The position numbers were made by a program, and so were the translations under genes. Shown in pieces: positions 1 to 32,865 of a stretch of DNA of 64,000 bases. The DNA lies in assembly GCA_052034235.1 (NCBI GenBank), contig JBPOIT010000005.1, positions 177,698 to 241,697 on the forward strand, in the 5' to 3' direction. Source of the DNA: Candidatus Levyibacteriota bacterium. Its GTDB lineage: Bacteria > Patescibacteriota > Microgenomatia > Levybacterales > UBA12049. Positions within the stretch are counted from its first letter, which is position 1. Every line of letters begins with the position of its first letter. The notes below the pieces were generated by a model, which saw nothing but the letters and a program-made list of their open reading frames with translations, searched no databases and had not been told where the DNA came from.

Positions 1-1246
1 GTCTTGGGGAATTACTTCCAAAACGCGTTGCAACTAGCTGCGCAACTGCTGTGTGTGGATCCATAACATAATTTGTCTTTTTATAAATATGTTTTATATT
101 TTTCAGACTATCCTCATTTGAAACCCAATCCGCATAAAATTCTTTTTGCAAAATAGCTTTTGTCTTAGCATCAACAGTAAAGGATCCTGTTGATTTCAAA
201 TCATTCATCCACTCGTAGATTTTTTTTGTATCGCCTGACAACACGTATAATAGCCGTTCAATATTACTGGCGATCAGAATATCCATTGAAGGAGAAGGTG
301 TTTTTACCAGGTGACGGTTAGTAATATCGTAAGTACCAGTTCGTAGGAAATCAGTTAATACATTATTGGCATTTGAAGCACATACACATGTTTTAATTGG
401 TAAACCCATACGTTTGGCATAATAAGCTGCAAGAATATTACCAAAATTACCTGTAGGAACAACAACATCGATTTCATCACCGAGTTTAATAACTTTTTGA
501 CTTACGAGCTCTAGATAACCATGGAAAAAATAGACGATTTGTGGAAGTAGCCTCCCCCAATTTATTGAGTTTGCTGAAGAAAGTAAAATGTTTTTTTCTG
601 CTAGTTCTTGTCCAAACGATATATCGGCAAAAAGTTCTTTAACACTACGCTGACAATCATCAAAATCTCCTTTCAAAGCAATAACTGAAACATTATTCCC
701 CTCCTGTGTTACCATTTGGAGTTCCTGAAATTGTGATACCCGTCCTTCCGGATAAAAAACCATTATTGAGATCTTTTTTTTATTTTTATATCCTTCAAGC
801 GCAGCTTTACCGGTATCGCCTGATGTTGCTACCAAAATGAGATATTTATCTGTTTTGTTTTTTACTGCTTCAGAAAAAAAGTGCGGCATAAGCTGCAGAG
901 CCATGTCTTTAAATGCAAGTGTTGGCCCATGCCAAAGTTCAAGCATGTTTTGATTTTCTCGTAGTGGAATCACAGGCGCAATTTGTTTGGTATCAAAATT
1001 GTTTCCATATGCTTTATGCACGAGCTTTTTTATCGTTTGTGCTGTAAGATCTGTTTGAAATTCATTTAGAAGAAAAATAGCTTTTTCCTGATATGTTTTT
1101 CCCAAAAGCTGCCTCAGCTGTTGATTACTAATGTGAGGAATTTTTTCAGGCACAAACAATCCCCCATCTGGAGCAATACCTTTAATAATTGCGTTTGAAA
1201 AAGTAACATGTGTTTTGTTTCCTCTGGTGCTAATGTACTTAATCAT
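1..1246 (-). CDS. thrC: threonine synthase; the 3' end is truncated by the window edge
   Basis: Minus-strand ORF with ATG at 1246..1244, uninterrupted to position 1. Translation begins MIKYISTRGNKTHVTFSNAIIKGIAPDGGLFVPEKIP, which is typical of the threonine synthase N-terminus. Its ATG overlaps the stop of the upstream kinase gene (ATGA). Confidence 0.8.
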   Translation of the reverse strand, partial: MIKYISTRGNKTHVTFSNAIIKGIAPDGGLFVPEKIPHISNQQLRQLLGKTYQEKAIFLLNEFQTDLTAQTIKKLVHKAYGNNFDTKQIAPVIPLRENQNMLELWHGPTLAFKDMALQLMPHFFSEAVKNKTDKYLILVATSGDTGKAALEGYKNKKKISIMVFYPEGRVSQFQELQMVTQEGNNVSVIALKGDFDDCQRSVKELFADISFGQELAEKNILLSSANSINWGRLLPQIVYFFHGYLELVSQKVIKLGDEIDVVVPTGNFGNILAAYYAKRMGLPIKTCVCASNANNVLTDFLRTGTYDITNRHLVKTPSPSMDILIASNIERLLYVLSGDTKKIYEWMNDLKSTGSFTVDAKTKAILQKEFYADWVSNEDSLKNIKHIYKKTNYVMDPHTAVAQLVATRFGSNSPR

Positions 1247-1860
1247 GGTTTGAGTTCCTCTATTAACATCTCTGCAGTAAAACCAGCACCTCGTAAATGA
1301 TGATAGTCCAGTGTTTTGTCGGCGAGTTTTGCATACGCATCTAATCGATAAGCAAGCAAGTCTGCATAACATCTTTCAAGCGCCTGGCTTTCAGTCTCCT
1401 GTTCGTTTTTTTGGTACGCATTTCCCCAAATAATTGGCTTTGGGTTTTTAATAAACACTTCATACATTTGCTGTTGAACTGATTGTGGAGTATCCAAATA
1501 AAGAACGTGTGTTATATCTTTCAAGCGTTTTAAAATCACCAAATCTATATAAATAACACTGCCTGTCGTATCAATGACAACATCTTCATCAATATCATTT
1601 ACCTGCATCAGCAATGCTTCCATTACTTCATTTTCAAATTGCAAATATTTACGACTTGTTTGAGGGTATTGCGTATCAAACGGTTGCCCCATCCATTTAG
1701 CAACATCGTTAATACCTCTGTAACCAAGCTTTTGTAATTCATCCCCAAGCTTTTCTTCAATTATGTCATCAACAGAAAAAACTTGGAAATGTTTTTGGGC
1801 CAACTGTTTTGACCAATAACTCTTACCACTTCCCGACATGCCAATTAAAGAAAGTTTCAT
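1243..1860 (-). CDS. P-loop NMP-kinase-fold protein, shikimate-kinase-like; candidate non-orthologous homoserine kinase
   Basis: The start MKLSLIGMSGSGKSYWSKQLAQKHFQVFSVDDIIEEKLG aligns well with the AroK N-terminus (Walker A GxxGxGKS, then the D-rich strand). The GGG shikimate-binding motif is replaced by TTGS. Its ATG overlaps the asd stop (ATGA) and its stop overlaps the thrC ATG (ATGA). The track ORF 1243..1953 extends in frame into asd; MKLSL at 1860 is the likely start. Confidence 0.55.
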   Translation of the reverse strand: MKLSLIGMSGSGKSYWSKQLAQKHFQVFSVDDIIEEKLGDELQKLGYRGINDVAKWMGQPFDTQYPQTSRKYLQFENEVMEALLMQVNDIDEDVVIDTTGSVIYIDLVILKRLKDITHVLYLDTPQSVQQQMYEVFIKNPKPIIWGNAYQKNEQETESQALERCYADLLAYRLDAYAKLADKTLDYHHLRGAGFTAEMLIEELKP

Positions 1861-2954
1861 ATATAGCCTTTTTTTACTAGGAATTCTGCCATAAGGACAG
1901 CTCCGCCTGCCGCACCTCGGATAGTGTTGTGAGAAAGTGAAACAAAGCGCCAACCAAAATGTTTGTCCGGCTCAAGCCTTCCCATTGTTATACCCATACC
2001 ACTGGCATAATCGCGATCGATTTTAGTTTGAGGTCTGTTATCTTCTTCAAAATATTTGATAAGTTTTTTCGGAGCTGATGGAAGACGAAGCTGTGCAATT
2101 GGATTTTCAAAATGTTCAATTGCATCGAGAAGTTGTTTTTTTGTGACTTTTTTCCCAAACTTCACCCGAACAACTGCCATATGTCCATCCGAAACAGCAA
2201 CCCGTACACAAGTAGCTGAGATTGTTGGTTTTTCAGCAATTGTAAGTGTACCCTTTGTTACTTTCCCCCAAATTTTCAAAGGCTCCTTTTCTGACTTTTC
2301 TTCTTCTCCGCCAATATAAGGAATCACGTTCTCAACCATTTCAGGCCAGGTTTCAAAATTTTTTCCAGCTCCTGAAATTGCCTGCATGCTGGTAACTGAA
2401 GCCTCAATTGGCTGGAATTTCTTAAGTGCTGTTAGAATAGATACGTACGATTGAATTGAGCAGTTGGGTTTTACAGCGATAAAACCTCTTCCGAAACCAC
2501 GGTTTTTCTTTTGGATATCAATCAGTTTGACATGCTCAGGATTTATCTCCGGCATGAGCATCGGAATATCTTCCGTCCAGCGATGTGCAGAATTATTTGA
2601 AACGACAGGCACTCCGGCTGCAGCATACGCAAGTTCAAGTTTTTGAATCGCATCTTTTTCCATATCTAATGCACAAAATACAAAACCTGTCCCGACGTTA
2701 TCAGGATCAATCTGCTCTGTTACTTTTTCAATGTCAGTGACGACCTGAACCTTAAGCTTAGCTATGCTTTCAGGAACGTTTACCTCCATTTTCCAGCGGC
2801 CTTTTACCGCTTCTTTATACGATTTGCCGGAAGAACTAGGAGATGCCGCGACAACAACCACTTCAAACCACGGATGATCCGCAAGTAGTGTTACAAATCT
2901 TTGCCCTACCATACCGGTAGCGCCTAATATGCCAACTCGTATTTTCTTTTTCAT
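1857..2954 (-). CDS. asd: aspartate-semialdehyde dehydrogenase
   Basis: 365 aa. Has the N-terminal Rossmann motif GILGATGMVGQ and the active-site NCS motif (KPNCSIQS). Length and overall pattern fit ASADH. Lies inside the thr operon. Confidence 0.85.
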   Translation of the reverse strand: MKKKIRVGILGATGMVGQRFVTLLADHPWFEVVVVAASPSSSGKSYKEAVKGRWKMEVNVPESIAKLKVQVVTDIEKVTEQIDPDNVGTGFVFCALDMEKDAIQKLELAYAAAGVPVVSNNSAHRWTEDIPMLMPEINPEHVKLIDIQKKNRGFGRGFIAVKPNCSIQSYVSILTALKKFQPIEASVTSMQAISGAGKNFETWPEMVENVIPYIGGEEEKSEKEPLKIWGKVTKGTLTIAEKPTISATCVRVAVSDGHMAVVRVKFGKKVTKKQLLDAIEHFENPIAQLRLPSAPKKLIKYFEEDNRPQTKIDRDYASGMGITMGRLEPDKHFGWRFVSLSHNTIRGAAGGAVLMAEFLVKKGYI

Positions 2955-2957
2955 ACG

Positions 2958-3974
2958 TTATATTTTATCAAAAATTGTCGAGATATCTCCAAACACCCCA
3001 GCAGCTGTTACTTCTCCACCTGCACCAGGACCTTTCACTATCAACAGGTTATTCAGGTAACGCTTGGTTTTGAAAACGATAAGATTATCCGGACCAGACA
3101 AACTACCAATATCTGATGTTTTATCGACTGCAACGAGTCCAACTTTGCATCCTTTTTTGGTTACATTGGCGACAAATCTCAGTACTTTGCCTTCTGTTTT
3201 TGCCTTTGCAGCTTTTTCTTTATACGATTTATCCAGATCAGAAATTTGACTCAAAAATGCCTCAACAGAAAGTTTTTCCATGTTTTTAGGATATAACCCC
3301 TCAAGTTTGACATCTGCCATTTCAACTTCCAATCCCAAAAGACGCGCCAAAATAAGCGCTTTACGAGCAACGTCCACTCCAGATAAGTCATCACGAGGAT
3401 CTGGTTCGGTAAACCCTAATTTTTTTGCTTCCAAAACTGCCCTGGAGAATGATGCACCATTTTCAATTTGTGAGAAGAGAAAGCCAAGTGTACCACTGAA
3501 ACATCCCTGGATTTCCAATACATCATCACCTGTTGCGAGAAGCGTCTTAAGTGTTGAAATAACGGGCAAACCTGCACCGACACTTGTTTCGTAAAACAAT
3601 CTTTCCCCACCTACTTTATGAAGCATATCAAAATCTTTTTGAGAACTAGCAATCGGCTTTTTATTGGACATCGTGACATATCCTCCGCGCTTGAGAGCCT
3701 GTTTCATATACACCATCGTTTTATCAGAAGCTGTCGTATCGATAAGGACAAAAGGAAGCGGCATCGCATCTATGGCATCAGTAACAGTCATCTTGGAATT
3801 TGTTGAAACACGTTTTAACTCGCTTTTTGAAAGACCGGTTTTCTTAAATACACCTGACTTTGACGTAAAGACGCCGCAATAAACATACTGCTTTGGGGCA
3901 TGTTCTGTTATTTGCTCAATGAGCTTTCCGCCCACATTGCCTGCACCTAGTTGTAATAAAAAGAGTTTTTTCAT
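2958..3974 (-). CDS. hom: homoserine dehydrogenase
   Basis: 338 aa. Has N-terminal GAGNVGG, TEPDPRDDLSGVDVARKALILARL and C-terminal GPGAG motifs, which are characteristic of Hom. Confidence 0.85.
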   Translation of the reverse strand: MKKLFLLQLGAGNVGGKLIEQITEHAPKQYVYCGVFTSKSGVFKKTGLSKSELKRVSTNSKMTVTDAIDAMPLPFVLIDTTASDKTMVYMKQALKRGGYVTMSNKKPIASSQKDFDMLHKVGGERLFYETSVGAGLPVISTLKTLLATGDDVLEIQGCFSGTLGFLFSQIENGASFSRAVLEAKKLGFTEPDPRDDLSGVDVARKALILARLLGLEVEMADVKLEGLYPKNMEKLSVEAFLSQISDLDKSYKEKAAKAKTEGKVLRFVANVTKKGCKVGLVAVDKTSDIGSLSGPDNLIVFKTKRYLNNLLIVKGPGAGGEVTAAGVFGDISTIFDKI

Positions 3975-5371
3975 TGTGCTAATTTATAAGCGCTATGGAT
4001 AACTTGTACTGCAGATTTTACATCCGTGTCGGCAATCAAGCAAGTAATATTTCGCTCAGATGATCCCTGGGCAATCGCTCTGATGTTGATACCGTTTGAG
4101 CCAAGTGCTGAAAAGAGTTTTCCGGCAGTTCCTGGTTTGCCGCGCATTCCCTGTCCGACTGCCGCAACAATTGCAAGACCATCTTCTTTTTTTACTGTTT
4201 CAATATATTTATTCATCAGTTCAAGTGCAAATGCATCTTTTAACACCTGTACCGTCCGCTCTCCATCTACATGCGCAACAACAAAGGAAATATTAAATTC
4301 ACTTGAAGCTTGTGAGATAAAATGGACATTAATATCTGATGCTGCAAGTACGGTGAAGAGTTTGGCAGACACACCAGGAACACCAATCATACCTTTACCC
4401 TGAAGGGTGATAAGAGAGATACCTTCAAATGTTGAAATTGCTTTTATACCAGGACGTGTATCGTTTGGTTTCTTTTCAATTCTCGTTCCTTCAAATTCAG
4501 GACGAAACGTATTTTTTATAACAATTGGAATTTCCTTTAGTGCAGCAGGCACCATCGTTAATGGATGCAGGACTTTTGCTCCGAAGTACGAGAGTTCAGT
4601 TGCTTCGTTATACGAAAGTACCTCAATTGATTTTGCTTCTTTGACAATCCTCGGATCAGCAGTCATCACACCATCAACATCAGTCCAAATCCAAACTTCC
4701 GACGCATCAAGACAATTACCAAGTATGGTCGCACTGTAATCAGATCCACCTCGACCAAGAGTTGTTATAACTCCCTGTTTATTGGCACCGAGAAAACCGG
4801 TAATCACCGGAATTATTTTTTTCTTTACCAGTTTGGTAATGTACGGTTTTGTTTTTTCAGCAGACTCCGAAAGAAGTGGTTTGGCACTTCCAAAATCATC
4901 AGAGGTGACGATCAGCTCATTAGCTTCAACTGGCTGTGCTAGTTTGCCTTTTTTTTGTATTGCTGCCGCGACAAGATGGATACTCATGCGCTCACCAAAT
5001 GAAGTCACTAAATCCTGACTTCGTTTTGAAGCTTCAGCAAGTTCATGAATACTGTACAAAAGATTTTTAAGATGTTTGAAATGTTTATCAAGGATATCTC
5101 TATTTTCCTCATGCACTTTTGCCGGAAGAGCAAGATCTTCAAGAGTACTTCGATGCAAGGTATAAAGTTTTTCAAGTTGTTTATTAAGTTGAGGTTTCTT
5201 TCGCTCTGAGGCAAGTTTGGTACATTCAACAAGGAGATTGGTTGCTCCACTAACTGCTGAAACAACTACCACGACTTTCTTTTTTTTGGCTAATTTTGTC
5301 ACAATGTCAGCAACTTCGCTCATTCGAGCTGCGCTTCCGACAGAGGTGCCGCCAAATTTCATCACTATCAT
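3971..5371 (-). CDS. lysC: aspartate kinase
   Basis: 466 aa. Starts MKFGGTSVG and has the amino-acid kinase fold plus two C-terminal ACT-like repeats. Overlaps both neighbouring genes by 4 nt. Confidence 0.9.
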   Translation of the reverse strand: MIVMKFGGTSVGSAARMSEVADIVTKLAKKKKVVVVVSAVSGATNLLVECTKLASERKKPQLNKQLEKLYTLHRSTLEDLALPAKVHEENRDILDKHFKHLKNLLYSIHELAEASKRSQDLVTSFGERMSIHLVAAAIQKKGKLAQPVEANELIVTSDDFGSAKPLLSESAEKTKPYITKLVKKKIIPVITGFLGANKQGVITTLGRGGSDYSATILGNCLDASEVWIWTDVDGVMTADPRIVKEAKSIEVLSYNEATELSYFGAKVLHPLTMVPAALKEIPIVIKNTFRPEFEGTRIEKKPNDTRPGIKAISTFEGISLITLQGKGMIGVPGVSAKLFTVLAASDINVHFISQASSEFNISFVVAHVDGERTVQVLKDAFALELMNKYIETVKKEDGLAIVAAVGQGMRGKPGTAGKLFSALGSNGINIRAIAQGSSERNITCLIADTDVKSAVQVIHSAYKLAQ

Positions 5372-6609
5372 ATCAGGAAATTGTATACCAAATCGTCAGT
5401 GGTAATCTTTCGGTATTTGAGGCCGATTTTTTCCATTTTGCTAAGAAGTGGCTCGAGATCTTTTTTAAATTTCAACTCGATCCCGACAAGGGCTGGACCT
5501 TTTTCCCTGTTCGTTTTTTTTGTGTATTCAAAAAGCACAATATCATCACTTTGTCCAAGTGCCTTGTTAAGAAATTCTTTCAATTGCCCAGGTTTTTGTG
5601 CAAATTCGATCAAGAAATAATGTTTTAATCCTTTATAAACCAAACTTTTTTCAAGTACTTCTGGATAGCGCAAAATATCATTATTGCCTCCGCTTAGAAT
5701 ACAAACAACAGTTTTGCCTTTAATATTTGAAAGTTCATCAAGTGCTGATATGGAAAGTGCACCGGCAGGTTCGGCGATAATTCCTTCCTGCTGATACAAA
5801 TCAATCATCGTCGCACACACTTTTCCTTCTTCGGAAAGCAAGATGCCGTCGACCACTTCTGTTGCAATTTTATAGGTTAAATCCCCGACTGACTGCACAG
5901 CAGCTCCGTCTACAAAGGTGTCAATCGTATCAAGCGTCACAACTTGCTTTTTCTTCATCGATGCATGCATTGCCGGTGCACCTTTTGGTTCTACTCCAAC
6001 AACTTTAATTTTAGGAAGTTTTGCCTTAAGATACGTCCCGATACCAGAAATAAGTCCACCGCCGCCGATAGCTGCAACAACAACATCAACTTTGCCGTTC
6101 ATCTGCTCAAAAATTTCTTTGCCGACAGTTCCCTGTCCTGCGATAGTCAGCGGATCGTTAAAAGGATGGACATAAACAGCCTGTGTGGATTCACCAAATT
6201 CGTGCGCCGCATGTGATGCATCATCGTAGGTATGTCCGACGAGTTTGATTGTCACATACGATCCGCCAAACTGCCGCACTCGATCAATTTTTTGTAAAGG
6301 AGTGATTGCCGGCATAAAAATTGTGCCTTTTATTTTGAGTTTGGCACAACTGAACGCAACACCCTGTGCGTGATTACCTGCACTTGCACAGACAACTCCC
6401 TTCTTTTTTTCGTCAGGAGTCATATGGCACATTTTATTATACGCACCGCGAAGTTTAAATGATCTAACTACCTGCAGATCTTCCCGCTTCAAATAGATAT
6501 GTGCTCCATAAAGTTTTGAAAGCCTTTCTGAATATTGGATAGGTGTTTCTACAGCCACTTTACTGACACACTCATTAGCTTTTTCTATATCTTGTATTGT
6601 TACTTTCAT
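5368..6609 (-). CDS. ilvA: threonine dehydratase (threonine ammonia-lyase) with a C-terminal regulatory domain
   Basis: 413 aa. Has the PLP-lysine motif SFKLRGA and a glycine-rich loop GGGGL. The C-terminal ~90 aa resemble an ACT-like regulatory domain. This is the first gene of the operon. Confidence 0.75.
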   Translation of the reverse strand: MKVTIQDIEKANECVSKVAVETPIQYSERLSKLYGAHIYLKREDLQVVRSFKLRGAYNKMCHMTPDEKKKGVVCASAGNHAQGVAFSCAKLKIKGTIFMPAITPLQKIDRVRQFGGSYVTIKLVGHTYDDASHAAHEFGESTQAVYVHPFNDPLTIAGQGTVGKEIFEQMNGKVDVVVAAIGGGGLISGIGTYLKAKLPKIKVVGVEPKGAPAMHASMKKKQVVTLDTIDTFVDGAAVQSVGDLTYKIATEVVDGILLSEEGKVCATMIDLYQQEGIIAEPAGALSISALDELSNIKGKTVVCILSGGNNDILRYPEVLEKSLVYKGLKHYFLIEFAQKPGQLKEFLNKALGQSDDIVLFEYTKKTNREKGPALVGIELKFKKDLEPLLSKMEKIGLKYRKITTDDLVYNFLI

Positions 6610-6617
6610 ATTTTTTC

Positions 6618-6650
6618 AATTAAAAAAACAAAAAAACCGCCTTTCGGCGG
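6618..6650 (-). terminator. intrinsic terminator (attenuator) in the thr-operon leader
   Basis: On the minus strand there is a stem CCGCC-GAAA-GGCGG followed by the run TTTTTTTGTTTTTTT. It lies about 8 nt upstream of the ilvA ATG and downstream of the leader peptide. Confidence 0.6.
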
Positions 6651-6686
6651 GTCTTGGTATGTTAGCTCACACGTACCAATCCCACC

Positions 6687-6734
6687 CTAGGTGGTAATAA
6701 TGGTAATTGTAATGTTTGCGTTGTTAAAACTCAT
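6687..6734 (-). CDS. thrL: thr/ilv operon leader peptide MSFNNANITITIITT
   Basis: Minus-strand reading is ATG AGT TTT AAC AAC GCA AAC ATT ACA ATT ACC ATT ATT ACC ACC TAG. Eight consecutive Ile/Thr codons come just before the stop. The stop sits in the loop of a CCACC-TAG-GGTGG hairpin, and the terminator lies downstream. Confidence 0.55.
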   Translation of the reverse strand: MSFNNANITITIITT

Positions 6735-6743
6735 ATAAAAGTA

Positions 6744-6771
6744 ATTATATACCTCGACTGGTATTTGTCAA
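6744..6771 (-). promoter_or_regulatory. sigma70-like promoter of the thr operon
   Basis: On the minus strand there is TTGACA (6771..6766), a 16-nt spacer and TATAAT (6749..6744). The -10 box overlaps the TAA stop of the upstream DUF1361 gene. The leader-peptide ATG is only about 9 nt after the -10 box. Confidence 0.5.
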
Positions 6772-8428: not shown

Positions 8429-9667
8429 ATGAATAGATTTTCCCTTGGCCATCTCCTCGTTTTAGTCACCATGTGCGTTTTACTTTTTAACGCAGCGTAT
8501 CCAGCACTTGATGTAGGGCGTTATCAATGTTATGCAACAGCTTTCTGGCACGGAACAAATGTCTTGCAGACCTCAGAGTACAAACACTGCGGCTTTCTTT
8601 TAGAAAACCAAAAACCTGTTGGCCCATATCGAATACTGCCGCTAGAGTATCCACCACTTTCACTCATACCCTTTTCGCTTGGTTTGAGCTTTGACTCACT
8701 TGGATATGCAACGTCGTTTAAAATCTGGATGCTTCTTACTGCTGTTTCTCTATACCTGCTTTTGCTGCGTTATGGTACACAAGCCTCGGCAATTGTCTTT
8801 GCACTCTATTTAGTTGCTGGCAGTTGGGCTCTAACGAGTGCACGCTTTGATATTTTCCCCGCACTGCTCACCTTTGGAGCACTGCTCCTTGCTGAAAAAA
8901 AGAAATGGAACTGGGCGTATATTGTCTTAGGTGCGGCTGTTCTTGTGAAGTTCTATCCAATCGTTCTTCTTCCGTTCTTTTTTGTCGCGCAGCAAAAAAC
9001 TATCAAGGGCAAACTCCTCTCTCTGAAACGGATTGAACCACTTATGCTTTTTAGCATTTTATGTATTGTGGTGTTCGGCCTTTCTTATATGCTCAATCCA
9101 GCTGGAACACTTGAACCGCTTACCTACTTTCAACACAGACCAATCCAAATAGAATCTTTGTGGTCATCCATTTTGTGGATTATCCAACCATTGAGTAGTC
9201 CATTACATTACATCTTCAGTTTTGGTTCAATAAATATCCTTAGCCCTCTTTCAGAAGCGATAATACGCCTGAGTTCTATCCTAAGTAGCGCAGGCTTTCT
9301 CGTTATTATCTGGTTGCAAATACGAGGCAAAATTACGTTGGCATATGCATGTATGCTTATGCTTTTATTGACTATTCTTCTTGGCAAAGTTTTTAGCATT
9401 CAATATCTAATGTGGATTGTACCGTTTATAGCTTATGTCGGGAAAAACAATCCATGGCACTTTATTCCGTGGTATACAATTTGTGCTTTAAGCACATGGA
9501 TTTACCCATATATTTATCCAAGCCTCTTCTCAACCAATGAAGATTCATTATTTTTTAATGTACTTTCTTTCCGAAATGGTTTAATGGTTCTGTTTTTTCT
9601 CTTTTTACTCACCTTTGCTATTTTTAAAAAAACTCCTCACCCAATCCATCGCCAGTTAACAAAATGA
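8429..9667 (+). CDS. GT-C fold membrane glycosyltransferase (DUF2029/GT87-like)
   Basis: 412 aa with more than 10 TM segments. The N-proximal loop has acidic and aromatic residues, and a FYPIVLLPFF segment is typical of polyprenyl-phosphate-sugar-dependent GT-C enzymes. Confidence 0.4.
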   Translation: MNRFSLGHLLVLVTMCVLLFNAAYPALDVGRYQCYATAFWHGTNVLQTSEYKHCGFLLENQKPVGPYRILPLEYPPLSLIPFSLGLSFDSLGYATSFKIWMLLTAVSLYLLLLRYGTQASAIVFALYLVAGSWALTSARFDIFPALLTFGALLLAEKKKWNWAYIVLGAAVLVKFYPIVLLPFFFVAQQKTIKGKLLSLKRIEPLMLFSILCIVVFGLSYMLNPAGTLEPLTYFQHRPIQIESLWSSILWIIQPLSSPLHYIFSFGSINILSPLSEAIIRLSSILSSAGFLVIIWLQIRGKITLAYACMLMLLLTILLGKVFSIQYLMWIVPFIAYVGKNNPWHFIPWYTICALSTWIYPYIYPSLFSTNEDSLFFNVLSFRNGLMVLFFLFLLTFAIFKKTPHPIHRQLTK

Positions 9668-10824
9668 AGCGATACATAAAGAAGCAATCCCAAAAATACA
9701 ACGCATAACATATAGTATTTCCACCCTGTTACCTTTGCTGCTAAAAAGATAAAAAGAGGAAAAGAGACTGATTGAAATCTCGAAAACGACATCGTGTCTT
9801 TTACAAGTAGTGGAAATACCCAAAGGAGTAGAGCAATCCACCAAAGCTGAGGATATTTTTTGAAATATTTTCGACAAGATATAATTAGCCCGCCGACAAG
9901 CACCATCATTGCTGTATCCACCTGAGATTCACGAGAATGATGAAAAGGTAGACTAAAGAATTTAAAAATCTGCTCGATGTTGTGATTAATTGCCGATGCC
10001 ATGGTATCTCCCTTGTACCAAACCGTTTGGATATGCTGCCAATAAAGCGGATCACCTGTTTGAAAATAACAAAAATAAAGCCAGCCCAGAAACGGCACGA
10101 AACTCAACGCAAAATAACCAATCGCTTGCCGCAATCCAATCCGCTTTTTATAAACAGCCAGGGCAAGTGTGAAAAAAAATATTCCTCCGATAATAAGTCC
10201 GTTAGGCCGACATACAAAAAGAAGAGCTGCTATGAGCGCTGAATAGAAAAATTTATGACGAATCATAAAATAACTCAACCAAACCAAAAGAAGTAAAAAG
10301 AGACTCTCCGTGTAGTAACTCCTATAGAAAATCCCAAATGGAAAAAGGAAAAGAAGAAATAAAGTTTTCGCAGCTAAGTGCCGCGTGAATAGCTTACTAA
10401 CAACATAATACAAACTTACAAAGTTCACTGCCAACAAAATGTTGCTTAGTATATATGCAGATAGTTCAACATTTCGAATCAGAACATTCAAGCCTGCTAT
10501 AAGCAGCGGATACAAGGGAAAAAACGCATATGTTAACGCGCCCATAAACCACGGACTCTGGTTAGCGTCAAATACTGCTTTTGTTGGATAGCCGTCATCT
10601 GCAATGCGCAAATACCACTGAGCATCCCACACACCAAGCGCCCGCAAAAATGAAAAATCACCACCTTGAATACGTGCATCAGGCAAATAATGATGAGAAT
10701 AATATTGGTAGGCAATATTATCAAACGGAACAGTTCTCTGTTGAAAGAACATATAACCAGTAAGAAAAAGTTGCAGCACGACAAAAATGGTAAACAAGCG
10801 TAGAAACACTTTGTCTTTAAACAT
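9637..10824 (-). CDS. GT-C fold membrane glycosyltransferase (PMT/ArnT-like)
   Basis: 395 aa, polytopic. Has an N-terminal loop with DxD-like residues (IADDGYP) and a YYxxS architecture like dolichyl/undecaprenyl-phosphate-sugar transferases. Converges on the previous gene and overlaps it by 31 bp. Confidence 0.4.
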   Translation of the reverse strand: MFKDKVFLRLFTIFVVLQLFLTGYMFFQQRTVPFDNIAYQYYSHHYLPDARIQGGDFSFLRALGVWDAQWYLRIADDGYPTKAVFDANQSPWFMGALTYAFFPLYPLLIAGLNVLIRNVELSAYILSNILLAVNFVSLYYVVSKLFTRHLAAKTLFLLFLFPFGIFYRSYYTESLFLLLLVWLSYFMIRHKFFYSALIAALLFVCRPNGLIIGGIFFFTLALAVYKKRIGLRQAIGYFALSFVPFLGWLYFCYFQTGDPLYWQHIQTVWYKGDTMASAINHNIEQIFKFFSLPFHHSRESQVDTAMMVLVGGLIISCRKYFKKYPQLWWIALLLWVFPLLVKDTMSFSRFQSVSFPLFIFLAAKVTGWKYYMLCVVFLGLLLYVSLHFVNWRWIG

Positions 10825-10904
10825 ATAAAAATTATATCGCTAATTACTCAGCAATGCGAGTTTGTAATTTTGAATTATGATACATATATCGTTATAATAA
10901 AATC

Positions 10905-12068
10905 ATGTTCGTAAAAAGTGTTGTATTATCGCTGTGTTTGTTTTTATTCCTCCTTATAACGCCTTTGGCACATGCTATTGAAAATCCGCTGGAGCGACCA
11001 AACAATAAAATGGGAATTCATATTTTATTTGATAGTGAATTACCTCAAGCTGCGAAATTTATTAATTCCTCAGGTGGAGATTGGGGGTACGCGATCATCC
11101 CAATTCAGGCTGGTGATAAAGATATTGTAAAATGGCAACAATTTATGGATTCAGCAAAACAGCAACGAGTTATCCCTATTCTTAGACTTGCTACTGAAGG
11201 TGACTACTTCAATACAAGTGTGTGGAGAAAACCAAAATACGAAGATGTTATTGATTTTGCGAATTTTCTCGATTCTCTTAATTGGCCAACCAAAAATCGC
11301 TATGTTGTTGTCTTTAATGAAGTTAATCGCGGTGACGAATGGGGAGGTTCTGCAAATCCTGCAGAATATGCTGAACTTTTGAGTTTTGCCGTGACAATTT
11401 TTAAATCCAAAAATCAGGACTTTTTTATCATTAATGCTGGACTTGATAACGCAGCACCTCGAGAAGGAACGAAATATATGAATCAATATGATTACATTCA
11501 AGCAATGAATGAAGCTGTCCCCGGTATTTTTAACCAAATTGACGGCTGGTCGAGTCATTCCTATCCCAATCCAGGATTTTCTCAAGCTCCTAATGCATTG
11601 AGCCGCATGGGTGTTGGGAGTTTTGCCCACGAGAAACAACTCGTTAAAACACTCAGTAGTAAAGATCTCCCGGTTTTTATTACTGAAACAGGCTGGACAA
11701 CTGACGTAGTCACTGATGAACTGATCGCAAAATATTATGTACAGACCTGGGACACGATTTGGTCAGATGCATCAATTGTTGCTGTAACACCGTTTCTACT
11801 CCAGGCAAACGGTGGACCATTTAAACAATTCACACTTATAAAAGATGATGGGAAATATACAAAGCAGTACGAGACTCTAAGAGCACTCCCCAAAAGACAA
11901 GGCTTTCCTTCACTCAATAAACAAAAAGTTCTTGCCGCCACAGCAACAAGTCTGGTTAACGTCCCTGCTGAAACGAAAGATTTTTCAACACCTGAGGTCA
12001 TTCCTGTCAAAAAATATCCATTGTCACTCACCGTCCAAAATGCCTTCAGATGGCTGATTGGGATATAA
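10905..12068 (+). CDS. secreted clan GH-A glycoside hydrolase (GH5-like)
   Basis: 387 aa. Has a signal peptide with an AHA cleavage site. The candidate acid/base residue is in VVFNEVNRGDEW and the candidate nucleophile in VFITETGWT, which together make a (beta/alpha)8 clan GH-A signature. Confidence 0.55.
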   Translation: MFVKSVVLSLCLFLFLLITPLAHAIENPLERPNNKMGIHILFDSELPQAAKFINSSGGDWGYAIIPIQAGDKDIVKWQQFMDSAKQQRVIPILRLATEGDYFNTSVWRKPKYEDVIDFANFLDSLNWPTKNRYVVVFNEVNRGDEWGGSANPAEYAELLSFAVTIFKSKNQDFFIINAGLDNAAPREGTKYMNQYDYIQAMNEAVPGIFNQIDGWSSHSYPNPGFSQAPNALSRMGVGSFAHEKQLVKTLSSKDLPVFITETGWTTDVVTDELIAKYYVQTWDTIWSDASIVAVTPFLLQANGGPFKQFTLIKDDGKYTKQYETLRALPKRQGFPSLNKQKVLAATATSLVNVPAETKDFSTPEVIPVKKYPLSLTVQNAFRWLIGI

Positions 12069-12457
12069 TCTGCATTACTATGGAATGGGAAGAAGCTGAT
12101 GATGTTAAACAAGATTTAAAAGTTGTACTCACCTATATCGATTTACCTTACATTGATATCAATCGCATCCATTGTTACCGAACAACCGGCTCCAAAGTAC
12201 GAGCCTACGCCAGAACATGGGCATTCCCCAAAATTTTCCAACGGGCTCTGGACATTCAGCCAGCTTACGTCATAGAGGTGTTATCCAAACATTATGACAA
12301 ACTGGACAATGACGCTCAAAAAAAAGTCCTTATCCATGAGCTTCTCCACATACCCAAAAATTTTTCGGGTGCACTCCTGCCGCACAAAACAAAAAGTCGG
12401 AATTTACATTCTCTTGCCAATCAATTATTTAAGGAGTATAAAAAGAAAATATGTTAA
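12050..12457 (+). CDS. small HExxH zinc-metallopeptidase-like protein (DUF45/SprT-like)
   Basis: 135 aa. Has a KKVLIHELLHIP motif (HExxH). An alternative ATG start lies at 12080. Overlaps the downstream gene by 7 nt. Confidence 0.3.
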   Translation: MADWDIICITMEWEEADDVKQDLKVVLTYIDLPYIDINRIHCYRTTGSKVRAYARTWAFPKIFQRALDIQPAYVIEVLSKHYDKLDNDAQKKVLIHELLHIPKNFSGALLPHKTKSRNLHSLANQLFKEYKKKIC

Positions 12458-13143
12458 CAATTATCCATGGCACTGATATTGTCGCTTCCCGCAAATTTTT
12501 TCTCGACCAAAAACTTGGCCATCCAGAAGCACTCACACTTGATGCTGAAAGTGTCAATTTAACTGATCTTGCTCAAGTTGTTGAGGGTGGCGGTTTGTTT
12601 GGAGAGTCAAAATATATTTTTATTGAACAATTCTTAACGAAACGTAAAAAATCTGGGGACTATAAAGATATTATTACCTATCTTGATACACATGCTGAAG
12701 AACACACAATTTTTCTTTGGGAAAACAAAGAGCTAGATATCTCAACACAAAAAGCTTTTAAAAAAGCTGCGATCAGACCATTCAAACTGCCCCAAACGCT
12801 TTTCGCACTGCTTGATACTATCAAACCTGGCAATGGCAAAATACTTTTAAAACAATTCCATGAAACAATTGCATCAACAGAGGTCGAAATGGTATTTTTC
12901 ATGCTCATCAGACAATTCAGAATGCTCCTCGCACTTTCAAGTCCGGGGACTGAAAGTGAAATTGACGAAGTCAAAAAGCTTACATGGCAGCGATCAAAAA
13001 TGGAAAAACAAGCATCACTATTTGAAGCGGAACATTTACTAGATTTATACGCAATTCTTTTCGCAATTGAAAAAGGGCAAAAAACAGGCACACTTTCAGC
13101 ACCTTTAACTACCACAATTGACTTTTTTTTGTTGGAGATTTAA
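12451..13143 (+). CDS. holA: short DNA polymerase III delta-subunit-like protein (HolA family)
   Basis: 230 aa. The N-terminus MLTIIHGTD and the LFGES…IFIE pattern resemble the clamp-loader delta N-domain. This is a weak, pattern-based call. Confidence 0.3.
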   Translation: MLTIIHGTDIVASRKFFLDQKLGHPEALTLDAESVNLTDLAQVVEGGGLFGESKYIFIEQFLTKRKKSGDYKDIITYLDTHAEEHTIFLWENKELDISTQKAFKKAAIRPFKLPQTLFALLDTIKPGNGKILLKQFHETIASTEVEMVFFMLIRQFRMLLALSSPGTESEIDEVKKLTWQRSKMEKQASLFEAEHLLDLYAILFAIEKGQKTGTLSAPLTTTIDFFLLEI

Positions 13144-13152
13144 AATGTATAA

Positions 13153-14541
13153 ATGAACGATATTGATCCTAAGATTTTCAAGGCATATGATATCAGGGCA
13201 ATTTATCCGGACCAGATGGACGAGACAAATATTGTTCATATTGTCCGCGCGTTTTACAAATTCTTCAAAACTCAAACTGAAAAAGAGCAACCTTCAATAG
13301 TCCTCGCATACGACATGCGTCTCTCCGGCCCCAAACTTTATGAAGCAGCCAAAAAGACACTCGTAGATATGGGAGCAAATGTGATCGAAGTAGGCCAACT
13401 CTCTACTCCATCTTTCTACTTTGCAGTTTTTAACTATAAATATGACTGTGGTATTCAGATTACAGCATCCCACAATCCAAAAGACTGGAATGGTATGAAA
13501 GCTGTCCGATACACACCAAAAGGTCTTATCAAGATAGGTAAACCAACAGGTATGGACGAAATCCAGAGATTGTCACTTGAAGGTGTTGACGAAACACCAG
13601 CGCAGCCTGGCTTTATTACACCAAAAGACGGCATCCTTGAGGATGAAGTTAATAAAACACTTGAGATTTTTAACAATCCTACACTTAAGAAGTTTAAGAT
13701 CGTAGCTGACCCAGCCAATGCCATGGGTGCGCAGTATATCCAAGCTTTATTTGATAAAATTCCAGCAGATCTTATCAAAATGAACTTTGAGCTCGACGGT
13801 AATTTCCCAGCTCACGAAGCAAATCCATTAAAGTTTGAAACCCTCGTTGATCTTCAGAAAAAAGTTATCGAAGAAGGTGCTGACTTTGGTCTCGCAACTG
13901 ACGGTGACGGAGATAGACTTTACTTTATCGACGAAAAAGGACAAGTAGTCAATGCAACCTCAATCACATCAATCGTGGCTCGTGAGATGCTCAAAACACA
14001 TCCAGGAGATCTAATTTATTTTGATATCCGGGACATTCTCTCTCCACAAAAAATTGTAGAAGAAGCAGGTGGACGTTCAGAGATTGTCAGAGTCGGTCAT
14101 GCATATATCACTGCTGCGATGAACAATTCAGGTGGTGTATTTGCAGGCGAATCATCAGGACACATGTTCTTCCGTGACATGGGTAATGCTGAAAATAATC
14201 TCCCAATTATTGTCTGCATCATGAAAGTGCTCACTGAAGAAGGCAAAACACTCTCAGAGCTCGTCCAGGAAATCAGAAGAGCTGAAGAATCTGGCGAAGT
14301 GAACTTTGAAGTTACTAATGCTCCTGAAATTCTTGAAGGGCTGAAGCAAAAATATAGTGACGGCACACTTGAGACCATGGATGGTGTTTCTATTTCCTAC
14401 CCTACATGGAGATTTAACGTCAGAACTTCAAACACTGAACCACTTATGCGTCTCAATGTTGAAGGTTACGACAAAGTCGAGATGCAAACAAAATTTGAAG
14501 AATTAAAGACATTTATTCAGAACTTAGCAAAAGCTGAGTAA
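13153..14541 (+). CDS. manB: phosphomannomutase/phosphoglucomutase
   Basis: 462 aa. Has the active-site serine loop TASHNP, a metal-binding loop DGDGDR and a GEESGH sugar-binding loop. Confidence 0.9.
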   Translation: MNDIDPKIFKAYDIRAIYPDQMDETNIVHIVRAFYKFFKTQTEKEQPSIVLAYDMRLSGPKLYEAAKKTLVDMGANVIEVGQLSTPSFYFAVFNYKYDCGIQITASHNPKDWNGMKAVRYTPKGLIKIGKPTGMDEIQRLSLEGVDETPAQPGFITPKDGILEDEVNKTLEIFNNPTLKKFKIVADPANAMGAQYIQALFDKIPADLIKMNFELDGNFPAHEANPLKFETLVDLQKKVIEEGADFGLATDGDGDRLYFIDEKGQVVNATSITSIVAREMLKTHPGDLIYFDIRDILSPQKIVEEAGGRSEIVRVGHAYITAAMNNSGGVFAGESSGHMFFRDMGNAENNLPIIVCIMKVLTEEGKTLSELVQEIRRAEESGEVNFEVTNAPEILEGLKQKYSDGTLETMDGVSISYPTWRFNVRTSNTEPLMRLNVEGYDKVEMQTKFEELKTFIQNLAKAE

Positions 14542-14546
14542 CCCCT

Positions 14547-15776
14547 ATGGCTGATCAATCACAACGGATCTTTCCAATCACTGGTAAAATTTTTTCCAGT
14601 CCTTACGATTGGGGTGGTAAAGAACTTATTCCACAAACGCTTGGCTTTACTCCTGAACCTGGTGTTCCTTATGCTGAATATTGGATCGGAGCACACAAAC
14701 GTGCACCATCAATGGTTGAATACTCAGATGGAACAAAATCGCTTGAAGAGATAATCGCCGGAAATCCTGAGGATATTTTAGGTTCAGAAGTAGCCAAGCG
14801 GTTTGGAGAACTTCCGTTTCTTTTTAAATTGTCCGAGGCCAAAAAAATGCTCTCAGTACAAGTACACCCAAATAAAAAACAAGCAGAAGAAGGTTTTGCA
14901 ATTGAGGAGAAATCAGGTATCCCTGCAACCGATTTGAAACGCACATTTAAAGATCCCAATTCTAAAACCGAAATGCCGCTCGCTCTGGGGGATTTTTGGC
15001 TCCTCCATGGACTAAGACCTGAAAGCGAAATGCTTGAAATTTTAAAAGAAACCAAAGAGTTAACGCCGCTTATTCCAATTTTTGGAAACAACGATTATCG
15101 AGCTCTTTATAAACATGTCCTAAGCGATATGTCCAAAGAGGAAGTGAATACGATGCTTTCCCCGCTTGCGATGAGAATTCGTAGACAATATGAAGATATT
15201 GAATTACAAAAAACTTCTCCTGACTATTGGGCTGCAAAGGCGATAAAGGATTTTAACATGCAAGAAGGAGACTATGACCGAGGATTATTCTCACTCTATT
15301 TCGCCAATATCGTTCATTTAAAAGCTGGTGATGCACTTTTCCAAAACGAAGGCGTTATTCATGCATTTCTCGAAGGACAATATATCGAAATCATGCAAAA
15401 TTCAGACAACATTGCCCGTGCTGGTATGACCAATAAACCGATTGATATTGAAGGGCTTATGAAATTTATGACATTCACCTCCCAAAAACCAAACATATTA
15501 GAAGGGAGAAAAGAGAATAATGAGATATTTTATGACGCGCCTGCTGATGAATTCCTCGTCAGTCAGCTTTTATTAAAAGACGGCATGCCCTACAAACAAA
15601 CCTCTTATTCTGTTGAAATACTCATGGGGATTACCGGCAACGCAACAATTACATCAGATGGAATATCACTTCCACTTGGACAAGGGAAAAGTATCGTTGT
15701 CTTCGCAGACGCGACCTACGAAATTACGGGCACAGAAACTGACGTTATCTTTAAAACAGCTGTTCCACACAAATGA
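14547..15776 (+). CDS. manA: mannose-6-phosphate isomerase, class I
   Basis: 409 aa. Has the motifs YAEYWIGAH, LPFLFKLSEAKKMLSVQVHP (zinc ligands Q/H) and C-terminal HAF, which are diagnostic of type I PMI. Confidence 0.85.
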   Translation: MADQSQRIFPITGKIFSSPYDWGGKELIPQTLGFTPEPGVPYAEYWIGAHKRAPSMVEYSDGTKSLEEIIAGNPEDILGSEVAKRFGELPFLFKLSEAKKMLSVQVHPNKKQAEEGFAIEEKSGIPATDLKRTFKDPNSKTEMPLALGDFWLLHGLRPESEMLEILKETKELTPLIPIFGNNDYRALYKHVLSDMSKEEVNTMLSPLAMRIRRQYEDIELQKTSPDYWAAKAIKDFNMQEGDYDRGLFSLYFANIVHLKAGDALFQNEGVIHAFLEGQYIEIMQNSDNIARAGMTNKPIDIEGLMKFMTFTSQKPNILEGRKENNEIFYDAPADEFLVSQLLLKDGMPYKQTSYSVEILMGITGNATITSDGISLPLGQGKSIVVFADATYEITGTETDVIFKTAVPHK

Positions 15777-16210
15777 ATGATTTAGCACACAATCAACCCT
15801 GCCCTCACTGTGGCAGATATAAAAATAGAGCAGTTACACTCGATGCAGTCATCATCAACGATAAAAACCAAGTACTACTCGTAAAACGAGGCAACGAACC
15901 GTATAAAGGGTTATGGGCGAATGCTGGTGGATATCTTGATCCAAACGAAACTGCAGAGCAAGGCATCATGCGTGAGGTCAAGGAAGAGACTGGTTTGGAC
16001 ACAGTATCAGTGACCTTTCTTAACGTCTACACCAATCCAAACAGACACCCTGATCAAGCCATCAGTGTCGCTTATGCCGTAAAGGTAACTGGAGAATTAA
16101 AAGCCGGCGACGACGCAGCTGATGCCGCTTGGTTTGCAATTGATAAACTTCCAACCCCACTAGCATTTGACCATGAAAGGATTATCCGTGACTATCTCAA
16201 ATCTAATTAA
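15773..16210 (+). CDS. Nudix hydrolase with an N-terminal zinc ribbon
   Basis: 145 aa. Has a CPHCG ribbon and the Nudix box GGYLDPNETAEQGIMREVKEETGL. Confidence 0.8.
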   Translation: MNDLAHNQPCPHCGRYKNRAVTLDAVIINDKNQVLLVKRGNEPYKGLWANAGGYLDPNETAEQGIMREVKEETGLDTVSVTFLNVYTNPNRHPDQAISVAYAVKVTGELKAGDDAADAAWFAIDKLPTPLAFDHERIIRDYLKSN

Positions 16211-16227
16211 CATGCCATACTAAGATT

Positions 16228-16569
16228 ATGCTCGCGACACTCAAACCGACATCGCAAAAGATTTTGTTAACCATTGTAGCTCTAATAGCTCTGTATTTCT
16301 TGGTTATGTTTGATTTCAGTACCCTGCTTCCACTCAATCTCATAACTATGTGGCAAATATTAGTCATAGGTTCATGGCTTGACAATTTTATTAATCTAGA
16401 CATAACAGCTTTATTCCTAGTAGCAAGTTTTGTGTACTTCCTCGTTTATGCTTCCATAACCTATTTGTGTATCTGTATTCTTCTCAATTTGAAAATCAAA
16501 AAAGAAACTGTTACGACATTTAGTAAAGAAGTGGCGAGTGAATTAAGTAATATTATTAAACCAAAATAA
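16228..16569 (+). CDS. small hypothetical membrane protein
   Basis: 113 aa with 3-4 hydrophobic segments and no recognisable motif. Confidence 0.25.
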   Translation: MLATLKPTSQKILLTIVALIALYFLVMFDFSTLLPLNLITMWQILVIGSWLDNFINLDITALFLVASFVYFLVYASITYLCICILLNLKIKKETVTTFSKEVASELSNIIKPK

Positions 16570-18114: not shown

Positions 18115-18582
18115 TTATCTCGTTACTGAAATTGTTTCTCCAAGTTCTGCTGCTGGGGCTGTGATTGTTATTCTACTATCGCCTGCTCCGACTGCTACTG
18201 TGTATCCAGTTACATATCCTGCTGGGCATGTTGATGCAATTGCTACTCCACCGTTTGTCAATGGATCTACTGGAAGTTGTGCGATATATTGGGTGACGAG
18301 TGCTCCACAGATATCTTGTGCTGCATCTGAAATTGCTCCTGATCCACCAGCTGCTGGCATTCCTGCTGGAAGTGCACCGTTATTGTCTGCTTGATATTGA
18401 CCTATTGCATTAAGGATAGCGTTTACGTCTGATGATCTCTTTGTGTTATTTGCTTGTGAGAATTGTCTTGCTGGATTGATAGCGATAAGGGTGATTGATA
18501 GGAGGATAGCTAAGATGCCGATAACGACTAGCAGTTCGATAAGTGTGAAACCTTTTTGTGATTTAAAATTTTGGACAGTCAT
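18115..18582 (-). CDS. pilA: type IV major pilin, copy 1
   Basis: 155 aa. Has a class III signal MTVQNFKSQKG|FTLIELLVVIGILAILLS with E at +5. The C-domain is Ala/Gly-rich with two Cys residues. Confidence 0.85.
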   Translation of the reverse strand: MTVQNFKSQKGFTLIELLVVIGILAILLSITLIAINPARQFSQANNTKRSSDVNAILNAIGQYQADNNGALPAGMPAAGGSGAISDAAQDICGALVTQYIAQLPVDPLTNGGVAIASTCPAGYVTGYTVAVGAGDSRITITAPAAELGETISVTR

Positions 18583-19585: not shown

Positions 19586-20053
19586 TTAGCGAGTGACTGA
19601 GATAGTTTCACCAAGTTCTGCTGCTGGGGCTGTGATTGTCACTCTACTATCACCCGCTCCGACTGCTACTGTGTATCCGGTTACATATCCTGCTGGGCAT
19701 GTCGATGCGATTGCAACGCCACCGCCGGTCAATGGATCTACTGGAAGTTGCGCGATATATTGGGTGACAAGTGCCCCACAAATATCCTGTGCTGCATCTG
19801 AGATCGTTCCAGACGCTCCTGCAGCTGGCATTCCTGCTGGAAGAGCTCCATTGTTATCTGCTTGATATTGGCCGATTGCATTAAGGATAGCATTTACATC
19901 AGATGATCTCTTTGTGTTATTTGCTTGTGAGAATTGTCTTGCTGGATTGATAGCGATAAGGGTGATTGATAGAAGGACTGCTAAAATACCGATAACGACG
20001 AGGAGTTCGATGAGTGTGAAACCTTTTTGGGATTTAAAATTTTGGACAGTCAT
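19586..20053 (-). CDS. pilA: type IV major pilin, copy 2
   Basis: 155 aa. Has the same prepilin leader as copy 1. It differs from copy 1 at about 5 residues (I13V, G90A, A93T, N117G, I143V). Confidence 0.85.
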   Translation of the reverse strand: MTVQNFKSQKGFTLIELLVVIGILAVLLSITLIAINPARQFSQANNTKRSSDVNAILNAIGQYQADNNGALPAGMPAAGASGTISDAAQDICGALVTQYIAQLPVDPLTGGGVAIASTCPAGYVTGYTVAVGAGDSRVTITAPAAELGETISVTR

Positions 20054-32238: not shown

Positions 32239-32865
32239 ATGGCATATCTAGTACTCGTTAGACACGGTGAATCGGTTTGGAATGCGCTTGGTCAGTGGAC
32301 CGGGTGGACTGATGTGGATTTGAGTGAAAAAGGCCACTCCGAGGCAAAAGAGGCTGGCAATCTCCTCAAAGATATTCATTTCGATTTTGCATATACTTCT
32401 GCACTGAAAAGAGCTCAACAAACCTTTGAAGAAATTAAACAAGTCCTCGGCCAACCAGATCTCACACCTACCGCTGATAAAGCGCTTGATGAGCGGGATT
32501 ATGGCGATTACACAGGCAAAAACAAATGGCAGGTAAAAGAGCAAGTTGGTGAAGAAGAATTCCAAAAACTCAGAAGAAGCTGGGATTATCCCCCACCAAA
32601 TGGAGAATCGCTTAAAATGGTTTACGATCGCGCAGTCCCGTATTACGAGCGAGAAATTTTGCCTAAACTCAAAGAAGGTAAAAATGTCATCATCGCTGCC
32701 CACGGTAACAGTCTCCGTGCTTTAAGCAAATATTTACAAAACATCCCGGATGACAAAATTGCATTACTAGAAATGCCCACCGGCCAACCATTTGTCTATC
32801 AAATAGATTCAGAAGGAAAAGTAACGTCAACCGAAGTCAGAGGTCAAAAAGAAAATACTGCTTAG
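32239..32865 (+). CDS. gpmA: 2,3-bisphosphoglycerate-dependent phosphoglycerate mutase
   Basis: 208 aa. Has LVLVRHGESVWN, TGWTDVDLSEKG and AAHGNSLRAL motifs (the histidine phosphatase RHG…H signature). Confidence 0.85.
   Translation: MAYLVLVRHGESVWNALGQWTGWTDVDLSEKGHSEAKEAGNLLKDIHFDFAYTSALKRAQQTFEEIKQVLGQPDLTPTADKALDERDYGDYTGKNKWQVKEQVGEEEFQKLRRSWDYPPPNGESLKMVYDRAVPYYEREILPKLKEGKNVIIAAHGNSLRALSKYLQNIPDDKIALLEMPTGQPFVYQIDSEGKVTSTEVRGQKENTA

Follow-up and report, generated by a model that had tools for sequence, protein, structure and literature searches.

In a 64,000-nucleotide stretch of a Candidatus Levyibacteriota genome (GenBank assembly GCA_052034235.1, contig JBPOIT010000005.1, positions 177,698 to 241,697; hereafter the window), a threonine operon carries a P-loop kinase of 205 amino acids between asd and thrC. 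We propose, with a probability of roughly 0.8, that this protein is an ATP-dependent L-homoserine kinase that has the shikimate-kinase fold, a P-loop fold of the nucleoside monophosphate (NMP) kinase-like type. We favour this function because gene order is conserved, because the kinase is found fused to other enzymes of the pathway, because Thr/Ile attenuators precede its operons, because it coexists with a true aroK in one genome and because residues specific for shikimate have been lost. Further grounds are that the Asp-to-Thr enzyme set of the operon is complete but for this step, and that there is a precedent in Desulfovibrio. An earlier note on this DNA had already suggested a shikimate-kinase-fold enzyme as the homoserine kinase of the operon, and genomic context, fusions, attenuators, the contig L035 described below and the pattern of active-site residues now support that suggestion well.

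The kinase gene lies at 1243..1860 on the minus strand, and its product, a predicted ATP:L-homoserine O-phosphotransferase according to its reading frame, fold model and family context, begins MKLSLIGMSGSGKS. The mechanically called reading frame reaches upstream to a TTG at 1953; as all 63 aligned homologues begin at the ATG at 1860, we take this codon as the true start. Six genes form the operon, all on the minus strand. They are ilvA, coding for threonine ammonia-lyase and standing first (5368..6609; NF006390, 613.9 bits), an aspartate kinase gene with two ACT domains (3971..5371; TIGR00657, 445 bits), hom for homoserine dehydrogenase (2958..3974; PF00742, 168 bits), asd for aspartate-semialdehyde dehydrogenase (1857..2954; NF006416, 447.8 bits), the kinase gene, and thrC for threonine synthase. 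The last is represented in the window by its 5' part of 415 codons (1..1246; TIGR00260, 251 bits; Thr_synth_N and PALP domains). According to Pfam and NCBIfam the kinase is the only gene of the operon left without an assignment, every other enzyme from aspartate to threonine being present. The kinase was found, identical in sequence and within the same operon, on 13 metagenome contigs. L001 is the longest of them that could be read; its thrC is complete (498 amino acids), and the gene after it is convergent. A RidA (Ribonuc_L-PSP) gene is found just past thrC on this source contig (L001 14858-15232). We also observed that ilvA heads the operon, yet the window holds no other ilv gene.

The earlier note correctly placed the kinase between asd and thrC, joined to each by an ATGA overlap: the asd stop overlaps the kinase start at 1857-1860 and the kinase stop overlaps the thrC start at 1243-1246. 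The ilvA/aspartokinase and aspartokinase/hom junctions are ATGA overlaps too. The shared stoichiometry that the note had read from these overlaps goes too far, since the same arrangement recurs at at least three sites of the window outside the operon (15773, 50636 and 53746). The overlaps mark operon membership and possible translational coupling, and no special stoichiometry.

Further information came from the genomic neighbourhoods of the family. The survey of such kinases in threonine operons that the earlier note had proposed was made on the best 80 genome loci, 74 of which could be evaluated, and in 41 of these 74 a thrC, hom, asd or aspartokinase gene directly adjoins the kinase or is fused to it. 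At 34 loci thrC lies no more than four genes from the kinase, mostly on the same strand and directly downstream, at times with a 4-nt overlap. E. coli-type ThrB was found at none of the best 80 loci. A second ThrC subtype, about 430 amino acids long and with an N-terminal Cys-rich segment and a PTGSFKDRG motif, stands downstream of the kinase in place of the E. coli-like ThrC at seven loci (L023, L025, L026, L035, L041, L053 and L063; around 8620-9940), and for L035 its identity was confirmed by TIGR00260 (275 bits). The threonyl-tRNA synthetase gene thrS is near the kinase at 11 loci, an adjacency that ties threonine synthesis to threonine charging. The kinase is directly upstream of thrS in L058, L066 and L072, and near it, at times in the order thrS-kinase-thrC, in L009-L011, L015, L024 and L059.

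Fusions connect the kinase with the enzyme that makes homoserine. In the 1031-residue protein P0133 the kinase is the C-terminal part behind AA_kinase, ACT and homoserine dehydrogenase domains, and in the 1055-residue P0259 it is N-terminal to the same three. From the two domain orders it follows that fusion with the homoserine-making enzyme took place at least twice. Fusion reading frames are also present in two Peribacteria genomes (L027 5481-8624, 1047 amino acids; L060 5481-8615, 1044 amino acids), and P0148 is likewise a triple-function fusion of aspartokinase/ACT, homoserine dehydrogenase and kinase. Moreover, on contig L035 the family kinase is directly followed by thrC, and 7 kb further on an aromatic operon (10180-16332) comprises genes for a 3-deoxy-D-arabino-heptulosonate 7-phosphate (DAHP)-synthase-like protein, PheA, a chorismate mutase/prephenate dehydrogenase, AroB (372 bits) and AroA (396 bits). 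The last gene of that operon encodes a canonical shikimate kinase (AroL model, 147.8 bits), and the role of shikimate kinase is consequently already filled on the same contig.

The operon of the window is preceded by what appears to be a Thr/Ile leader-peptide attenuator. A sigma-70-type promoter (TTGACA-16-TATAAT, 12 of 12 consensus positions, recognised purely as a pattern match) is located at 6744..6771 on the minus strand. It is followed at 6687..6734 by a leader peptide frame of 15 codons, MSFNNANITITIITT and its stop, with four Thr and four Ile in the final eight codons. A terminator scan and a minimum free energy fold point to a putative attenuator RNA at 6627..6686 of the same strand. 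In it the sequence GGGUGGG abuts the leader stop codon and can pair with CCCGCC as an antiterminator; the alternative is a terminator, CCGCCGAAAGGCGG with a U-run, at 6627-6650, 17 nt before the ilvA ATG. The minimum free energy fold adopts the antiterminator pairing (-31.3 kcal/mol, z -2.8). An attenuator switching between the two pairings is the mechanism that we predict. In an Rfam scan of the window the only matches were two tRNAs; neither a riboswitch nor a T-box was found ahead of the operon.

Leaders of this kind recur across the family. A scan of 1.1 Mb (the 80 loci and the window) for short reading frames with at least seven Thr or Ile among eight codons gave 16 matches, 13 of them distinct, and ten of these 13 immediately precede operons that contain the kinase (the window and nine loci). 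Two others precede thrS (L010 and L020) and one lies elsewhere (L026 12809). The locus leaders were mapped to L010 6050-6094, L018 1338-1406, L019 4143-4202, L020 10349-10396, L026 4785-4844, L028 1282-1347, L029 430-513, L035 7765-7848, L042 454-522, L053 7762-7827 and L054 6708-6764. A GC hairpin with a T-run follows the leader and precedes the next gene in nine of these 11 cases, as it does in the window. Behind the leaders of L028, L035 and L053 stands a bare pair of genes, with the kinase first and thrC second. Since Thr/Ile leaders stand ahead of kinase operons, expression of the kinase would be tied to the charging of Thr- and Ile-tRNA, and such coupling is what we expect of a threonine biosynthetic enzyme. 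Several of the metagenome-assembled genomes (MAGs) that bear a leader are labelled as lineages of the candidate phyla radiation (CPR), and leader-peptide attenuation seems to be widespread in these CPR-labelled lineages.

An AlphaFold2 model built on the family alignment reached a predicted local distance difference test score (pLDDT) of 94.5 and a predicted template modelling score (pTM) of 0.89. In a Foldseek comparison with the PDB, ranks 1 to 35 were all shikimate kinases. The modelled protein has an NMP-kinase-like fold with the topology of shikimate kinase, in agreement with the fold named in the earlier note. At the level of sequence the relationship is distant. A profile of 64 family members run against PDB chains retrieved none of the solved shikimate kinases (E <= 0.01), its single match being a designed amidase (E 0.002), and in Pfam the window kinase is matched weakly, by AAA_33 (27.6 bits) and SKI (25.8 bits), and not by any GHMP model. 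As the PDB sequence search matched no shikimate kinase, residue equivalences were taken from an hhalign comparison of the family alignment with six shikimate kinases (97.8% probability, E 1e-12). They are given below in the numbering of the M. tuberculosis enzyme (MtSK), and conservation was counted over 132 representatives of clusters at 50% identity.

The residues that handle ATP and the transferred phosphate are kept. The Walker A or P-loop sequence G7-M-S-G-S-G-K13-S14 (1819..1842 on the minus strand, as are all the segments that follow) has G12 and K13 invariant (132/132), K13 being equivalent to MtSK K15. D31 of the pair D31-D32 (1765..1770) corresponds to the catalytic Asp34 of MtSK, which binds the substrate hydroxyl, and is present in 128 of 132. 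In the LID loop, K141-P142 (1435..1440) matches MtSK R117-P118, with Lys in 103 and Arg in 20 of the representatives at position 141. R172 (1345..1347), equivalent to the MtSK R136 that binds the substrate carboxylate, is invariant (132/132), and E76 (MtSK E61) and Y176 (MtSK Y140) are retained in all 132 as well. The contacts specific for shikimate look different. MtSK R58, which binds the shikimate carboxylate, is lost and its place taken by L73; the position is Leu in 115 of 132 and otherwise aliphatic, Arg being absent from the four commonest residues listed. D97-T98-T99-G100-S101 (1558..1572) stands where MtSK has S77-L78-G79-G80-G81, in place of the shikimate-binding (A/S)-(T/L)-G-G-G loop, with D97 in 131 of 132 and G100 and S101 in all. 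The replacement of GGG by TTGS, read by the earlier note from the one protein, is therefore borne out by the profile-profile alignment as a property of the whole family. Two insertions have no counterpart in shikimate kinases. The first spans residues ~42-65, about 24 residues (1666..1737), reads KLGYxGIxDVAKWMGQPxDxQY, appears as a gap in the hhalign alignment and carries W56 (132/132) and P60 (131/132); the second spans residues ~147-157 (about 11 residues). With a signature nearly invariant in 132 representatives, the phosphotransfer machinery appears intact and the contacts specific for shikimate appear to have been replaced.

According to this comparison, it is tempting to propose how the enzyme would work. 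K13 and S14 of the P-loop would bind ATP-Mg, and K141 of the LID would close on the gamma-phosphate and hold it during transfer. D31 may position or deprotonate the gamma-hydroxyl of homoserine, the carboxylate of which would be bound by R172. The invariant W56 and P60 of the larger insertion, together with D97, could narrow the pocket for a small amino acid, the alpha-amino group of which may be bound by D97. The kinase would then supply O-phospho-L-homoserine to the ThrC encoded directly downstream. In this scheme a five-step pathway from aspartate to threonine (aspartokinase, Asd, Hom, the kinase and ThrC) would be encoded in a single operon together with IlvA, under the control of the Thr/Ile leader-peptide attenuator.

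Four points weigh against a homoserine kinase. First, 33 of the 74 evaluable loci have no threonine gene beside the kinase, and these are mostly Desulfobacterota-like. Second, the residue roles are predictions drawn from an alignment of profiles and from a predicted model that contains no ligand. Third, the kinase scores only marginally above the whole-protein cut-off of Pfam SKI (25.8 bits against 22.1), and every single stretch of it stays below. Fourth, the search for a competing kinase covers 74 kb of the source genome, namely the window and 10 kb beyond its start on L001, so a thrB, thrH or HomK gene may lie elsewhere. Within these 74 kb, six-frame hmmsearch and phmmer searches, for which profiles of shikimate kinases and of the family and the E. 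coli ThrB sequence served as queries, found no second shikimate-kinase-like reading frame and none like E. coli ThrB. Together with a reading of the window ORFs, these searches agree with the earlier note that the window has no thrB. Reading the ORF translations of the window, with Pfam on ten ambiguous ones, gave no candidate for a homoserine kinase of GHMP, APH or phosphoglycerate-mutase-like type; the ten include a PfkB sugar kinase, three histidine phosphatases and a Cof-type HAD hydrolase. By phmmer, no similarity to E. coli ThrB was detected in the window or in 86 loci.

The idea that a shikimate-kinase-like protein serves as homoserine kinase is not new. In Desulfovibrio vulgaris Miyazaki F the homoserine kinase is DvMF_0971, a protein annotated as shikimate kinase; threonine rescues mutants of its gene, and an E. 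coli thrB- strain is complemented by it (Price et al. 2018, PMC5764234). The earlier note had spoken of a previously undescribed route for threonine biosynthesis, which is wrong in principle, as this enzyme has been known since 2018. The family could then be a distant orthologue within the DvMF_0971 group, with the same function and no separate recruitment of the fold, an explanation that we regard as rather unlikely but which is the strongest of those competing with ours. The NCBIfam model for the DvMF_0971 type (NF040667, 'hom_kin_desulfo', 163 positions) is the top NCBIfam match of the window kinase (44.5 bits, E 1.4e-11) and of 11 further members from diverse loci (32-47 bits), above every shikimate kinase model. 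However, all these scores are far under the cut-off of 197 bits, and the family, at about 205 amino acids, has two insertions with respect to the model. Moreover, NF040667 gives the canonical shikimate kinase of L035 a score of 98.6 bits, over double the 32-47 bits of the family members. NF040667 is thus a model close to shikimate kinases and the family is remote from both, so that we rejected the best match to NF040667 as a sign of specific kinship. Neither DvMF_0971 nor a near homologue was among the best 120 matches listed in either of our two protein searches. What is new here, as judged by length, insertions and scores, is a separate and larger family of about 205 amino acids with two insertions, below the NF040667 cut-off and annotated as 'shikimate kinase' or 'hypothetical'.

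If the homoserine kinase function is set aside, the protein might act on a different metabolite of the Asp/Thr branch, for example by phosphorylating L-serine, or L-threonine in the manner of PduX, or it might be regulatory. The gene context points to threonine metabolism in general, and both the thrS adjacency and the Thr leaders would fit. However, ThrC requires O-phosphohomoserine, which the remaining enzymes of the operon do not make, and the fusion partner yields homoserine, the would-be substrate. In addition, the gene occupies the usual slot of thrB between hom or asd and thrC, and attenuators induced by threonine starvation fit biosynthesis. We therefore consider this improbable.

Less probable still, and only slightly credible in our view, is a divergent but genuine shikimate kinase (AroK) that is merely embedded in the threonine operon. 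Shikimate kinases are its nearest solved structures, its Pfam SKI score is 25.8 bits, and its relatives are publicly named 'shikimate kinase'. Against this stand the Leu at the Arg58 position and the T-G-S in the GGG loop, the failure of the family profile to retrieve a shikimate kinase from the PDB by sequence at E <= 0.01 and the score on the NCBIfam AroK model NF003456 (19.3 bits, the cut-off being 195). No aro gene is present in the 74 kb of the window and L001, and L035 has its canonical shikimate kinase in the aro operon and the family member beside thrC. The usual fusion partner of shikimate kinase is AroB, whereas here it is aspartokinase-homoserine dehydrogenase. Finally, a catalytically dead or scaffolding P-loop protein kept in the operon can practically be dismissed, as the Walker A Gly and Lys, the catalytic Asp and Arg172 are conserved in 97-100% of the 132 representatives, the LID Lys/Arg is conserved too, and the model is compact and confident.

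The homoserine kinase family that we propose is large. Two word-indexed protein searches returned 474 and 663 matches; at E <= 1e-30 the family comprises 397 clusters at 50% identity among 1.84 billion representatives, and a scan of genome collections found relatives in 462 species genomes. Among the matches listed, the nearest relatives of the window kinase belong to CPR bacteria of the Microgenomates group (Levybacteria, Gottesmanbacteria, Roizmanbacteria and Daviesbacteria). Remoter members come from Peregrinibacteria, Saccharibacteria, Woesearchaeota, Desulfobacterales, Syntrophobacteraceae, Terriglobia, Anaerolineales, Phycisphaerae and SAR324. The taxon labels of many MAG records are doubtful (e.g. 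TPA 'uncultured Gammaproteobacteria ... binchicken'), and such titles were not used for taxonomy. The records of the family among the matches listed are named 'shikimate kinase' or 'hypothetical protein', and never 'homoserine kinase'. In the literature we found no paper that describes the family as a homoserine kinase, and none on CPR bacteria that deals with it. A broader hypothesis, which we offer tentatively and at somewhat less than even odds, is that the fold was recruited in this family separately, and perhaps independently, from its recruitment in the Desulfovibrio enzyme. It would then be a main homoserine kinase of Microgenomates, other CPR bacteria and DPANN archaea, present also in many Desulfobacterota, Terriglobia and Chloroflexi, mis-annotated throughout, explaining part of the 'missing thrB' gap and belonging to a pathway under Thr/Ile attenuation.

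CPR bacteria are usually described as incapable of amino acid synthesis. Our results suggest that some of them carry a complete and regulated pathway from aspartate to threonine. With respect to AroK, the family would be a clean case of a substrate pocket rebuilt on a fixed phosphotransfer scaffold. A shikimate kinase of the GHMP type is established in archaea, and a homoserine kinase on the shikimate-kinase fold would be its reciprocal. The family also bears on genome annotation. The thrB gene is missing in 16 of 208 genomes of prototrophs (GapMind 2026 preprint, July 2026); the preprint supposes that other kinases took over and does not mention a shikimate-kinase-like family. Such gaps lead to false predictions of threonine auxotrophy. 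The family is a testable candidate for some of them, and its recognition would correct a systematic mis-annotation as 'shikimate kinase'.

Other genes of the window deserve a brief mention. Two near-identical genes for type IV pilin-like proteins of 155 amino acids (MTVQNFKSQKGFTLIELLVV...) lie about 1 kb apart on the minus strand (18115-18582 and 19586-20053) and adjoin a pilus assembly cluster (PilB-like, 26517-28202; PilC-like, 25461-26513) and a gene for an 831-residue protein. A small gene at 12050-12457, coding for a 'putative phage metallopeptidase' domain (PF18894, 73 bits), shares 7 nt with the beginning of a DNA polymerase III delta-like gene. Three paralogues of the histidine-phosphatase superfamily (His_Phos_1) are found within 20 kb (32239-32865, 34866-35510 and 51709-52326), only one of which resembles a standard phosphoglycerate mutase.

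Transcription attenuation by leader peptides of the thrL type is an established system in E. coli. The arrangement described here resembles it in that a short Thr/Ile-rich reading frame, with alternative hairpins and an intrinsic terminator behind it, precedes genes of threonine biosynthesis. It differs from thrL in that the stop codon of the window leader directly abuts the antiterminator arm, in that it is known here from sequence alone and in that it is found in CPR and further MAG lineages. The kinase shares with the DvMF_0971 type a P-loop kinase of the shikimate-kinase fold that takes the place of ThrB in threonine synthesis. That type is proven by genetics and complementation, whereas the function of the present family is predicted; the two also differ in size, the family having about 205 residues and two insertions and the DvMF_0971 model 163 positions. 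AroK and AroL (PF01202; PDB 2iyq and 1kag) carry Arg58 and GGG, in contrast to the Leu and the T-G-S behind an invariant Asp of the family, which has in addition the insertions of ~24 and ~11 residues and is accompanied by thr genes and not by aro genes. ThrB, of the GHMP kinase family, has the same reaction as that predicted here and the same operon position by hom and thrC, but its fold is unrelated. HomK/ThrB2 (BT2402, TIGR02535, phosphoglycerate-mutase-like) and ThrH are also non-orthologous replacements of ThrB located beside thrC (PMC9026213; bioRxiv 10.1101/2024.10.14.618325). They have other folds and are probably not ATP-dependent, whereas the family described here has an intact ATP-binding P-loop.

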